Source of the DNA: Escherichia phage A7_1
Length of the DNA: 64,000 nucleotides
Sequence record: OP795442
Direction: 5' to 3' (one strand)
A model generated the notes under the pieces. The model searched no databases, was not told the origin of the DNA, and saw only the letters and a list, made by a program, of their open reading frames with translations. The stretch's first letter is position 1. Each line of letters begins with the position of its first letter. Made by a program: the position numbers and the translations under genes. This document shows positions 35,308 through 45,193 of the stretch, piece by piece.

Positions 35308-35536
35308 CGGAGGATTCCTTATCTAGAGCACCAACAATCTCGAACTTTGCTACGCCTAAAACAACCACATGACCCAAGGATTGTACACCTGTCCACGGAG
35401 TACCATTCCTCTTAGGTCGCTTACCAGTTACATCGCAGAAATCATTCCGCATTTCTGTTGCATCAAACAACTCGCCTTTCGGAAAAACATCTTTGAAGTC
35501 AGCGATCACGTTAAGACATTTCAGTTTCATATTCAA
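35297..35536 (-). CDS. hypothetical protein
   Basis: 79 aa, SD AGGAG. Confidence 0.5.
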   Translation of the reverse strand: MNMKLKCLNVIADFKDVFPKGELFDATEMRNDFCDVTGKRPKRNGTPWTGVQSLGHVVVLGVAKFEIVGALDKESSDGV

Positions 35537-35855
35537 ACACTCCTCTCTCTAATCTTTGTTTGGCAAGTAACTCCCTTTGTGCTCTAAGTGGCATCCTGAA
35601 AAATATCACAACATTCTCCAAATCTGCCGCCCGTTTTTTAAGCTCTTTGGTGAATTTACCTTCCCGCTTAATTGCATCGTATATCTCTCTATACTCATAT
35701 TCGATAGAGTTGTCTTCAAATATCCGGTTGGCGACCATATTATCAATCTCCATACCGATAGCTTCAAAGCTATACCAGTCTACATGTTCTTCTGTAACAG
35801 GACCTCTTTCTTTGTACACTTGTCCAGTTATTTCATTAACTACGATCGTTGTCAT
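35511..35855 (-). CDS. hypothetical protein, FFRMP family
   Basis: ATG 35855 after AAGGAGA; paralogue of next gene. Confidence 0.5.
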   Translation of the reverse strand: MTTIVVNEITGQVYKERGPVTEEHVDWYSFEAIGMEIDNMVANRIFEDNSIEYEYREIYDAIKREGKFTKELKKRAADLENVVIFFRMPLRAQRELLAKQRLERGVFEYETEMS

Positions 35856-36180
35856 TGGAGTATCTCCTTGCATTATACGGCATCCTGAAAAAGTTTAAAA
35901 GGTTGTAGATAGCAGCAACCCTCTCTCTTACCTTTTCGTCAGAGAAACAATCAGGACCTTCGCTGCAAAGTTTAAAATCTATATCTTCCCACTCAGCGAC
36001 CACAGATTCGTCTTCGAAAACTCCCTTTTCAAACATCATCCGAATCTCCATCTCCATACCCTTGAAGATTGTAAAAGTAACATCTTCAGGATCAAGGTAT
36101 GATACATTGTCTATAAAGAGGCCCCTTTCGGGATAAATGACCATATGCAAAATAATCCTCCTGTGTCCAATATAATCCAC
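35836..36180 (-). CDS. hypothetical protein, FFRMP family
   Basis: 114 aa; shares PERG..GMEI..FED..FFRMP pattern with 35511..35855. Confidence 0.5.
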   Translation of the reverse strand: MDYIGHRRIILHMVIYPERGLFIDNVSYLDPEDVTFTIFKGMEMEIRMMFEKGVFEDESVVAEWEDIDFKLCSEGPDCFSDEKVRERVAAIYNLLNFFRMPYNARRYSNDNDRS

Positions 36181-36268
36181 CCAGAAGCGATTTTGACGAG
36201 GTTTTCTTAATATAATGATAAATCACCTTACCTCGTCGTAGACCTCGTTAGAATCGTTCTGAGAGCGT

Positions 36269-36523
36269 TTAAGCCATACCGAGCAAATTCATCTCTTTTA
36301 ACAGACCTTCCAAGGTAGCATTAAACAACACTGGCTTACCTTCCTCCAACTTATTGAAGAAGATTTCATGAATTTCATTATCTATCTTCTCCATCTCTTT
36401 TACCACCTCATCTGACAAAAAGATATCGCTACCTTTTAACCCAGGAAACATCAAGAGGATTGCTATTTTTGAATCAGTTGCCCAACCCCTTCCACCATCG
36501 AGACTGAATATCTTAATCATCAT
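36269..36523 (-). CDS. hypothetical protein
   Basis: 84 aa ORF. Confidence 0.5.
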   Translation of the reverse strand: MMIKIFSLDGGRGWATDSKIAILLMFPGLKGSDIFLSDEVVKEMEKIDNEIHEIFFNKLEEGKPVLFNATLEGLLKEMNLLGMA

Positions 36524-36821
36524 TTACCTCCAGATTAGCCAGTGCAGTTCGGACTTGAAGAAGAGTTGCCCCTCTCGACTCATTTCTCTCTGAGAAATCA
36601 CGAATCATCATCTTGCACTTCATTTCTTCTTCAGTACGGAGAATCTTCTGTTCGATCAGTTTGTAAACTTGGCCTGCTCTTTCTGGAAACAACGCTGCAA
36701 AGAGATTCCAATCTTCCAATCTACCTTCGTAAGACTCTCCAGAAGTAAAGTACCGATCTCTTTCGATACTGTCAACAAAATAGTAGCCGAATTCACCATA
36801 ACGCCAAGTTTCATTTTTCAT
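36513..36821 (-). CDS. hypothetical protein (RDRYFTS..EGRLEDW family)
   Basis: 102 aa; paralogue of 36983..37222. Confidence 0.55.
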   Translation of the reverse strand: MKNETWRYGEFGYYFVDSIERDRYFTSGESYEGRLEDWNLFAALFPERAGQVYKLIEQKILRTEEEMKCKMMIRDFSERNESRGATLLQVRTALANLEVNDD

Positions 36822-42855: not shown

Positions 42856-42857
42856 AG

Positions 42858-43313
42858 TTACCCCTGTTTAAGCTTAAAAGATTTAAAGGCTTCGATAAAG
42901 TCCATTTCTTTTTGCGTGTATTTGTGGTCAATTGTATCAGCGAAAAGAGGGCAACGACCATCAACCAACTTCACATCCCACAGATGTTGAGGGAGAATAA
43001 ATGCAATGGCTGTAAGTGCACCATTCAAAGAATCATTCTCCTCGCAGAAAAATGCGTAAGGAATCTTCTCTATGTTTGGAGCTAAAAATCCTTCTGCAAA
43101 ATTAAGCATCTTAGATTGATAGCCTCCGTTCAACAAGATCATTGTTTGGTCTTTGCTTTGCCACTGATCTACAAGGTTGTATCTGTCATCATATCGATCG
43201 GCATAGGCAAAGCCATAATGACCTACAAGGTTTGCTGCTGCATGTGCTGCTTGGATACCTGCTTGGATTCCCATCATGTAGCTGTTTACCAATACGTACA
43301 TCCGAGTTTTCAA
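42858..43313 (-). CDS. hypothetical protein, possibly peptidyl-tRNA hydrolase (Pth2)-like
   Basis: 151 aa; N-terminal VLVNSYMMGIQAGIQAAHAA resembles Pth2 core; low-confidence function. Confidence 0.5.
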   Translation of the reverse strand: MKTRMYVLVNSYMMGIQAGIQAAHAAANLVGHYGFAYADRYDDRYNLVDQWQSKDQTMILLNGGYQSKMLNFAEGFLAPNIEKIPYAFFCEENDSLNGALTAIAFILPQHLWDVKLVDGRCPLFADTIDHKYTQKEMDFIEAFKSFKLKQG

Positions 43314-43630
43314 TTCTTACCTCCGAAAATTCTTTTTGCAAATTTTTCATTACCTAACGTCATGTTGTAGAAAACTATAATTGAATAGACAATCCACGCA
43401 AGGACATAAAATAAAATCAAGAAAGGCCAGCCCACAAACCAAAACACTGTCATTATTAACCAGCCCGTCATAAGGAGTTTATAATTAACATTCCCGTGAT
43501 TTAAAGGGTCAAGTAAGTTACTGTTCTCTGGCAGGGTGATACGAAACCCACCTTGACGAAGCTTGATCAAAAAGAACCAAGCAGCAGAACTTATAATGCA
43601 ACATAAAATATATATCAGTAATCCTGTCAT
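43310..43630 (-). CDS. hypothetical membrane protein, tandem paralogue A
   Basis: 106 aa; shares FLIKLRQ.GF..P and helix layout with 43627..43956. Confidence 0.55.
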   Translation of the reverse strand: MTGLLIYILCCIISSAAWFFLIKLRQGGFRITLPENSNLLDPLNHGNVNYKLLMTGWLIMTVFWFVGWPFLILFYVLAWIVYSIIVFYNMTLGNEKFAKRIFGGKN

Positions 43631-43956
43631 TTTTTAACTCCGAAGATCTTAGATAGTAATTTATCATTCCCGATAGTTACACCACAAAAACTTTTTACTC
43701 CGTATACTAGATACGACCCGATTGTAACACAGATAATGATCGGATAAACAAGATACCAAAAGAATGTTGCAAGTATCCACCCTGCCATCACCATACGTAA
43801 ATTTACATTTTCGTTATTCAGTGGCTCCAGGATATAAATATCCTCACAATCTTTTGGGAAGGGGATGTTAAAACCCTTCTGTCGTAATTTGATCAGTAAG
43901 AACCAAAGCGGGCAACTGATAAAACAACCGATCAAATAACCTTCAACCATTTTCAC
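43627..43956 (-). CDS. hypothetical membrane protein, tandem paralogue B
   Basis: 109 aa; paralogue of 43310..43630. Confidence 0.55.
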   Translation of the reverse strand: MKMVEGYLIGCFISCPLWFLLIKLRQKGFNIPFPKDCEDIYILEPLNNENVNLRMVMAGWILATFFWYLVYPIIICVTIGSYLVYGVKSFCGVTIGNDKLLSKIFGVKK

Positions 43957-45193
43957 TCTCCTTCAATTTGTCAAGATATTGTGTAACGTATCTTACTTTT
44001 ACATTTCGGATTCTATTCTTGATCTCTTCTGGACGTCCAGCAAATCTTTCAGAGATCTCTTTACTTTCTTTTGAGATTGCAACGCTGTTTTGAACAATCC
44101 CCGCCAGTGCTGAGAATAATACCAAAGGTTGAGTGTAGCTGTCAAACATTTTTTCAGGACCCCGACCACGAGCATCACAGATGCAAGCATCAATAAATTC
44201 AGAGAGGAATGCTTGGTCCTTTTCACCACGTAAGGCTACTAACAAGTCATAAACTTTCTTTGGCTTCATTTCTTTGATACGGTGAAGTCGTGTATGATGC
44301 TCAGTTACAGCTAAAGCCAACTTCTTCCAATTATTGGGGACACCAAAGCGATCACAAACTTGTTCAGTTAACTTGATACCATGTTCTTCGTGACCGTGCA
44401 GTTTACCCGTTACCCAATAAATACATTTACCTAAGTCGTGACACAGAACTGCCCACTTCACAGCTTCACTTGCACGAGTCGCCTGGGCATAATCCATGCA
44501 AAGTAAAGTGTGAACAAATGCATCACCTTCAGGATGGTGCTCCTTGGGTTGAACAACATCGTATAAATCCACAAGCTCAGGAAATTCCCCCAGTTGAGTC
44601 AACATACGGATCATTACCGAAGGTTTATTCATTTCTGACTGATCACTAAAGCATTTCTTAATCTCTGCAAATTTACGCTCTTTTGGTAATGCACTTAAAT
44701 CAACATCCTTGCACATTCCCCAAGTGTCAGGATCAATTGTAAACTCGCCTCCGTATCTGGCATGTAATCTGGCTAATCGATATACACGTAAAGGGTCTTC
44801 GATAAATGCCTTAATAGATACACAACGTAACCGACGAAGTTCAATATCAAGTGCACCACCGCAAGGGTCAATAATTTCACCCGTAGAAATATCCTTAGCG
44901 ATCGCATTAATGGTCAAATCTCTTCGCATCAGGTCTTGTTCGATTGTAACGTCTGGAGAGAACACAACTTCGAAGTCGTGATAACCAGGACCTGTTGATC
45001 TTTCTGTCCGAGCAAGAGCATACTCTTCCTTTGTCTCGGGGTGAAGGTACACAGGGAAAGCTGCACCAACCTTAGTAAATCCCTTCTCAATCATTTCTTC
45101 ATGGGTCGCTCCAACTACAACGTAGTCACGATCCTTGCTTTCAACACTCATTAGTTCATCGCGAACTGCACCACCTACCAAGTAAACTTTCAT
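43943..45193 (-). CDS. cca: CCA-adding tRNA nucleotidyltransferase with HD domain
   Basis: MKVYLVGGAVRD..DRD..YALARTER..RRDLTINA..DPLRV..CHDLGK closely follows E. coli Cca; ATG 45193 after AAGGA. Confidence 0.85.
   Translation of the reverse strand: MKVYLVGGAVRDELMSVESKDRDYVVVGATHEEMIEKGFTKVGAAFPVYLHPETKEEYALARTERSTGPGYHDFEVVFSPDVTIEQDLMRRDLTINAIAKDISTGEIIDPCGGALDIELRRLRCVSIKAFIEDPLRVYRLARLHARYGGEFTIDPDTWGMCKDVDLSALPKERKFAEIKKCFSDQSEMNKPSVMIRMLTQLGEFPELVDLYDVVQPKEHHPEGDAFVHTLLCMDYAQATRASEAVKWAVLCHDLGKCIYWVTGKLHGHEEHGIKLTEQVCDRFGVPNNWKKLALAVTEHHTRLHRIKEMKPKKVYDLLVALRGEKDQAFLSEFIDACICDARGRGPEKMFDSYTQPLVLFSALAGIVQNSVAISKESKEISERFAGRPEEIKNRIRNVKVRYVTQYLDKLKESENG

Follow-up and report, generated by a model that had tools for sequence, protein, structure and literature searches.

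The DNA analysed here, referred to as the window, is the full 64,000-nucleotide (nt) stretch of Escherichia phage A7_1 in sequence record OP795442, and our subject is a set of small genes that occur in it as pairs of similar copies, three on the minus strand (43310/43627, 35511/35836 and 36513/36983) and one on the plus strand (12548/14366); genes are named throughout by their lower coordinate (Table 1). The Septuagintavirus-type phage group is under development for E. coli therapy, and large lytic phages carry many small genes without assigned function. The window shares 94-96% identity with Escherichia phages A73, W70, A5-4, UPEC06 and LTH01, all of the genus Septuagintavirus in the subfamily Vequintavirinae, and the paired-gene region is the accessory-gene arm of this genome, whose genes are almost all annotated as 'hypothetical' in the relatives. 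Mosaicism within the genus is seen in the identity to A5-4, which is 99.7% at 11800-15200 and 95.9% at 35000-45000, and in that to A73, which shifts between successive genes from 89.5% to 100%. The paper describing the genus (PMC11370258) makes no mention of paralogues.

Paired small genes of the minus strand

A preliminary description made from the letters of the sequence had proposed that all four pairs are paralogous, and pairwise alignment gave similarity well beyond chance in each of them, with BLASTP expectation (E) values of 5e-30 to 3e-10 on the minus strand and 4e-32 on the plus strand. The products of 43310 and 43627 are 41% identical over 103 amino acids (aa; E 5e-30), those of 35511 and 35836 34% over 92 aa (E 8e-11), those of 36513 and 36983 35% over 46 aa (E 3e-10), and those of 12548 and 14366 59% over 76 aa (E 4e-32). 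When the 350 open reading frames (ORFs) of the window were compared all against all, the same four pairs were the top non-self matches (E 1e-8 to 1e-29), and they also ranked top in profile-profile comparison (hhalign). The motif strings quoted for the pairs were approximate, in that the similarity holds and the exact letters do not (LIKLRQ.GF is common to both copies; KERG stands against PERG), and 36513 and 36983 are not strictly adjacent as had been stated, the small membrane ORF 36818 lying between them.

To place the pairs, the syntenic region was compared in four Certrevirus-like contigs (L003-L006) and five more distant Vequintavirinae. Both membrane proteins cover the 107-position profile of phrog_17692 over its full length (positions 3-107 by 43310 and 4-106 by 43627), and the common helix layout proposed for them is borne out by the same hydropathy pattern in both copies, namely an N-terminal transmembrane segment at residues 1-25 and a hydrophobic hairpin of ~38 aa at 54-92. 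A single Certrevirus membrane gene is 40-46% identical to 43310 and 34-39% to 43627 (contigs L003-L005), 43310 being the copy nearer to this orthologue. The second pair, related at an hhalign probability of 96.6%, has one weak syntenic Certrevirus orthologue (hhalign 75%, E 2.5e-5), and 35511 matched no PHROG or Pfam family. An ORF equivalent to 35511-35855 is intact and conserved at positions 1531-1837 of the A73 locus, yet it is unannotated there; it is annotated in UPEC06. The third pair has as its counterpart a single Certrevirus gene in the syntenic position, which resembles the two copies to about the same degree, and for the intervening ORF 36818 no homologue was found in the Certrevirus loci compared.

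UPEC06 and A73 have both copies of all three minus-strand pairs, and the minus-strand region is 97-100% covered in all five close relatives. Because each has one Certrevirus orthologue at the same place, all three have the look of old duplications that took place in situ and are confined to this genus. The pairwise ratio of nonsynonymous to synonymous change (dN/dS, Nei-Gojobori, window genes against UPEC06 and A73) was 0.02-0.25 for every gene compared, both copies of each pair included, so that all are real genes under purifying selection. Since both copies are held in this way, it is probable that their functions have diverged and that neither is redundant. The duplications would have arisen by unequal or illegitimate recombination inside a tightly packed operon. 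Gene gain and loss between the genera is found in the minus-strand array, and taken together the small accessory genes form a multigene array of the ordinary birth-and-death kind, with a modestly novel family among them. Two points weigh on the other side. The membrane-gene duplication and the genus split do not appear datable relative to each other, the copies being 41% identical to one another and 34-46% to the single gene of Certrevirus, and promoter-like sites in the minus-strand block at 33.5-47.5 kb are no commoner than in shuffled sequence. To the best explanation of the whole, which joins old retained paralogues, a module family and a DUF7249 cassette, we give a probability of about 0.7.

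The candidate module family

At least nine genes of the window, seven of them within 34.8-40.9 kb and the pair 36513/36983 included, appear to have in common a module of ~40 aa with the motif (D/E)(F/Y)F.DP..PT.EEL.LF..LYP and the consensus IEEFFEDPTNPTEEELDLFEMLYPEEF; the fuller motif is (D/E)(F/Y)F.(D/E)P..(P)T.EE(L/I/V).(L/F)(F/L)..(L)(Y/F)P. In 190 profile-profile comparisons among 20 gene families (hhalign), 34804, 37590, 38042, 37232 and 40371 formed a clique with the best scores after five pairs (E 2e-6 to 7.7e-4), eight of its ten possible pairs falling in the top 13, and the module segment of these five families aligns ungapped with an invariant F and E. Across 19 module sequences from seven families, F7 and E17 are invariant and P..PT recurs in fixed register, while 36513/36983 need an insertion of 1-2 residues to fit the alignment; this family joins the module when its Certrevirus orthologues are added (hhalign 85.5%, E 5.7e-6). 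Within the clique, 34804 and 37590 form a further pair which, like the family as a whole, had escaped the preliminary description (hhalign 97.9%, E 3.5e-13 over 142 columns). They cross-match phrog_12307 and phrog_12686, both copies are present in Certrevirus, and phrog_12463, the family of 8813, is also weakly matched by 34804. Hidden Markov models (HMMs) of the module recovered proteins on which they had not been trained, namely 8813, 62750, additional Certrevirus families, and proteins of the phages Av-05 (25 bits) and EspYZU14 (22 bits), where shuffled sequences reached at most 8-10 bits. At third codon positions, identity between module segments mostly lies close to the random level, and it is therefore the protein that is conserved; a conserved nucleotide element beneath the module was rejected on the same third codons and on a longest common word of at most 11 nt.

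Of the alternatives to our reading, the one that survives best is that the module is a convergent or compositional likeness of acidic amphipathic helices and that relatedness stops at the individual pairs. D, E and L abound in the segment, and the hhalign probabilities of the module matches are 58-90% and not above 95%. With each family left out in turn, the HMM recovered two of five (37590 and 40371) clearly above shuffles, while 34804, 38042 and 37232, at 5-9 bits, did not stand clear of the shuffled maxima of 6-9, and membership of the superfamily would therefore rest on moderate profile-profile probabilities (58-90%) and the consistent register. Likewise, 36513/36983 reach the module at E 0.003-0.012 when their Certrevirus orthologues are withheld. 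A likeness of composition alone, however, fits poorly with an ungapped alignment in which the invariant F and E and the P..PT keep a fixed register across seven families, with the E values of at least 0.0033 that the 17 control families without the module gave against its profile, and with the scores of 22-27 bits for independent members from other phages, where shuffled sequences gave no more than 8-10. The members are also clustered in one syntenic array, and the same AlphaFold sub-structure was predicted in two contexts (34804 and 36983). We consider convergence unlikely and prefer a module of common origin.

The module family is not previously recorded, being absent as a common unit from PHROGs and Pfam. 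Several PHROG families (phrog_17692, 12307, 12686, 12009, 12113, 12463 and 12410) match window proteins strongly, and both membrane copies fall in one of them, but the module proteins are held in at least six separate families with no record of the module that links them. No Pfam family is common to 33 module proteins, and DUF7675 (PF24723) was rejected as the module family, as one of the 33 matched it at 14.3 bits against a gathering cut-off of 27. An exhaustive profile search of 1.84 billion representatives returned 13 proteins, all from the same families. An iterative HMM seeded from 36513/36983 alone gave no matches; word-indexed searches, whose index misses relatives at 30% identity, gave 27 candidates with one truncated orthologue for a short module alignment and only its own cluster for 37590. 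Among 50,697 phage records the consensus occurs in 37, at up to eight places each, and these are nearly all enterobacterial phages of 140-155 kb, mostly Certrevirus- and Septuagintavirus-like. Recognition of the module and of the three retained pairs collapses many 'hypothetical proteins' into few families.

The AlphaFold model of 34804, from a 23-sequence alignment, has a mean predicted local distance difference test score (pLDDT) of 83.8 and a predicted template modelling score of 0.79, with helices at the N-terminus ahead of a sheet of eight strands; the module supplies the final strand, a loop and a pair of helices (pLDDT 89-94). The product of 36983, modelled from the module alignment itself, is predicted as a small all-helical bundle (pLDDT 82.5). 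A loop, a helix and a Pro-initiated helix are thus predicted in both models, with module pLDDT of about 80-94. A structure search of BFVD matched orthologues alone, Foldseek gave no match below E 1 in the PDB, and sequence searches of the PDB gave no matches. Because the module stands nearly alone in 36983 and is joined to unrelated N-terminal parts elsewhere (a beta-sheet domain, a disordered region, or a helix-turn-helix (HTH) domain in Av-05), with a Cys-rich C-terminal domain behind it in 40371, it is probably an autonomous loop-helix-helix unit. Conceivably, such a unit would dock the variable attached parts onto one common phage or host partner during infection; this is our guess at the most likely role, and we hold it tentatively. 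More doubtful is the broader proposal of an unrecognised multi-copy family, with at least nine genes per genome, confined to Certrevirus- and Septuagintavirus-like phages and split over at least six PHROGs, that would serve as a common docking unit in takeover. The 79-aa product of 36983 is a tractable start for structural and interaction studies. The bacterial beta-clamp-binding motif is QL[SD]LF, and several module copies carry EELDLF or EEIQLF, with Glu in place of Gln. A beta-clamp-binding reading of EELDLF was rejected, as the residues lie inside a confidently predicted helix (pLDDT about 90) and not in a disordered tail.

Some further observations concern individual members. Residues ~113-162 of 40371 form a Cys/His-rich C-terminal domain (HPHSCSIDYH...CSG.GC...C...CCP), conserved in the Certrevirus orthologues and also matching phrog_19749 and phrog_14060, which is probably zinc-binding. 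In Escherichia phage Av-05, a 259-aa 'plasmid antitoxin with HTH domain' (11994-12773) has the module close to its C-terminal end (25 bits, E 1e-6) and is the sole module protein seen with a recognisable DNA-binding domain. Marginal matches of ~8 bits, within the shuffled range, were found at 5072-5443 on the plus strand (FLYPDRIADEDIDFL) and at 34391-34606 on the minus strand (ICALYPEWKDMV), and these are possible further diverged members. The pair 35511/35836 was tried as a member and rejected (hhalign E 0.39).

The DUF7249 cassette and the origin of the pairs

The plus-strand pair belongs to DUF7249 (PF23907), whose gathering cut-off of 27 bits is exceeded by both products, and its history differs from that of the minus-strand pairs. 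The cassette that holds 12548 is present in the window and in A5-4 and absent from A73, its edges (window 12456 and 13155) corresponding to nearly contiguous positions of the A73 locus (2155 and 2167), and 12548 is missing in UPEC06 and LTH01. A73, UPEC06 and LTH01 have a single DUF7249 copy, which stands at the position of 14366, yet it is 82-85% identical to 12548 and 66% to 14366. Within 14366, the central segment at 14439-14555 has 50-73% nt identity, surrounded by DNA that is 87-100% identical. The product of 12548 is 87% identical to Phapecoctavirus copies, relatives of the 14366 product at 91-92% identity occur in jumbo E. coli phages (e.g., phAPEC6) and in some E. coli phages of ~150 kb, and both subtypes circulate among unrelated E. 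coli phages. From these comparisons, the best explanation of the pair is the gain of a cassette and the replacement of an allele, in place of tandem duplication: a cassette that bears a promoter and one DUF7249 subtype would have been inserted, and the central segment of the resident copy would have been replaced. The N- and C-terminal ends of DUF7249 are conserved, but strains that are nearly identical elsewhere differ sharply in the segment between them, which suggests allele shuffling or diversifying selection at the centre.

The identical 19-aa C-terminus reported for the two products is real (TPDGFKYSTTAIRAAMVGM), and since it is encoded with eight synonymous nucleotide differences, purifying selection, rather than gene conversion, keeps it identical. 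The 'near-identical promoters', on the other hand, were overstated. A TTGACA -35 and a TG-extended -10 precede each of the two genes, but the -10 hexamers and spacers differ (TAAGAT with 16 nt, CATAAT with 17 nt) and the upstream and flanking DNA does not align. The cassette site is TTGACA-16-TAAGAT with TG at 12471-12498. Promoter-like TTGACA sites stand before nearly every small plus-strand gene of 12300-15100 (at 12344, 12471, 13148, 13465, 13682, 14001, 14294, 14625 and 15051), a pattern typical of an early region built from independent cassettes. Like moron cassettes, 12457-13154 carries a sigma-70-like promoter of its own along with two small genes, and it interrupts sequence that is contiguous in A73; unlike them, it lies in an early-type region and not in a prophage late operon, and it has no clear 3' terminator, the scan having found none at that end and its sole plus-strand terminator upstream of the cassette (12288-12311). 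Both proteins have the conserved N- and C-terminal segments of PF23907/phrog_871, and two subtypes in one genome are the minority state in the family (276 places in 236 matching phage records). As the DUF7249 case shows, genes that pass for 'tandem duplicates' in the early region of a phage may be alleles acquired separately, which matters where paralogy serves to infer selection.

The minus-strand pairs could likewise stem from horizontal acquisition of a second homologue in place of in-situ duplication, as the DUF7249 case demonstrates cassette exchange in this very genome and the genus is visibly mosaic (A73 per-gene identity of 89.5% to 100%). The minus-strand copies, however, lie side by side or almost so, point the same way and belong to one operon-like array; comparison of the Vequintavirinae loci turned up no nearer relative of either copy from outside the genus, nor was one found for the module genes among the 1.84 billion representatives or for 37590 in the word-indexed search. 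We regard this origin as quite unlikely and in-situ duplication as the better account of these three pairs. The proposal of local duplication accordingly stands for the minus-strand pairs, with one syntenic Certrevirus orthologue each, and fails for the DUF7249 pair.

Very improbable is the view that the pairs are recent adaptive amplifications ('gene accordions') of host-interaction genes under positive selection, which is close to the ongoing rapid evolution that had been proposed for them. The genes are small, accessory and arranged in tandem, and their orthologues have diverged faster between the genera (30-45% aa identity) than the neighbouring enzymes (60-66%). Even so, the copies of all four pairs are merely 34-59% identical in aa, and 34-41% in the minus-strand pairs, with no near-identical DNA; both copies of the three minus-strand pairs are in all close relatives; the dN/dS of every copy is 0.02-0.25, indicating purifying selection; and third-codon identity in the module is mostly near random. 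The pairs are thus old, and recent tandem amplification is largely refuted, with neither near-identical DNA, nor copy-number variation, nor positive or relaxed selection in pairwise dN/dS. Presence and absence, suggested earlier as a check, proved constant for the minus-strand pairs among close relatives and variable for the DUF7249 pair only, through cassette insertion. The multigene families and gene accordions of large DNA viruses (poxvirus K3L, jumbo-phage paralogues) are alike in their tandem small accessory paralogues and lineage-specific gain and loss, but the copies in the window are old, diverged and individually conserved, without recent amplification. The chance that the similarities are accidental or the ORFs not genes is negligible, for although the ORFs are small and 35511-35873 is missing from the A73 annotation, the matches reach E 1e-8 to 1e-29 in the 350-ORF database and the ORFs are intact in relatives with synonymous changes in strong excess.

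Coordinates and neighbouring genes

Table 1. Paired genes, module genes and associated features of the window.
Feature	Coordinates	Strand	Details
DUF7249 gene, subtype 1, inside extra cassette	12548..12799	+	83 aa; PF23907 51.5 bits, E 2.2e-13; phrog_871
DUF7249 gene, subtype 2	14366..14605	+	79 aa; PF23907 43.8 bits, E 5.4e-11; divergent centre 14439-14555
Cassette of ~700 bp	12457..13154		promoter-like site, 12548 gene and 12817-13143 gene (108 aa); blastn breakpoints
Membrane paralogue A1	43310..43630	-	106 aa; phrog_17692 E 1.5e-32; dN/dS ~0
Membrane paralogue A2, more diverged copy	43627..43956	-	109 aa; phrog_17692 E 3.7e-21; dN/dS 0.02-0.04
Paralogue B1	35511..35873	-	120 aa, longest ORF; annotated start in relatives ~35855; dN/dS 0.12-0.23
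Paralogue B2	35836..36180	-	114-aa ORF; 102 aa as annotated in relatives
Paralogue C1	36513..36821	-	102 aa; module at residues ~19-62; dN/dS 0.10-0.12
Hydrophobic ORF between C1 and C2	36818..36979	-	53 aa; in UPEC06 and A73; dN/dS 0.06-0.08
Paralogue C2, almost stand-alone module	36983..37222	-	79 aa
Candidate module protein	34804..35307	-	167 aa; module 115-160; full-length paralogue of 37590-38045
Candidate module protein	37232..37606	-	124 aa; module 74-117; hhalign clique, module HMM
Candidate module protein	37590..38045	-	151 aa; module 96-141; 20.3 bits with own family left out
Candidate module protein	38042..38563	-	173 aa; module 110-154; phrog_12009
Candidate module protein	40371..40859	-	162 aa; module 70-113; phrog_12113; 14.2 bits with own family left out
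Candidate module protein	8813..9631	+	272 aa; module 235-272; phrog_12463; 16-18 bits, E ~1e-4, HMMs trained without 8813
Candidate module protein	62750..63418	-	222-aa ORF; module ~175-199; phrog_12410; 12-18 bits, HMMs trained without 62750
Strong terminator-like hairpin	38584..38611	-	12-bp stem and T run; just upstream of packed 38563-to-34804 array

The array adjoins conserved RNA-related genes, namely those for a CCA-adding enzyme (PolyA_pol and HD domains, 43943-45241), a PTH2-like hydrolase (42858-43313), an RlaP-like nucleotidyltransferase (40844-41971) and a class II aminoacyl-tRNA synthetase-like protein (39276-39884; PHROG label 'histidyl tRNA synthetase'), all on the minus strand. 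The product of 39856-40458 has a MazG/PRA-PH-like C-terminal domain. The RNA/translation-related minus-strand cluster of 38616-45241 is conserved across Vequintavirinae, and ARAGORN found no tRNA genes in the whole window. Besides the hairpin of Table 1, further minus-strand terminator-like hairpins lie at 39230-39255 and 45780-45803.

Tandem copies are also found outside the array. Proteins with RCC1-like repeats (Pfam RCC1-like domain; phrog_4219) stand in tandem at 29364-32953 on the minus strand; 31721-32953 and 30571-31818 are full-length, while 30082-30561 and 29364-30068 cover profile positions 434-577 and 570-799 in succession and thereby suggest a single gene that has been split. A further small paralogue pair, 21185-21373 and 19814-19951, both on the minus strand, is 38% identical over 37 aa, with a pairwise E of 2e-8 and an E of 1.4e-5 in the 350-ORF search.

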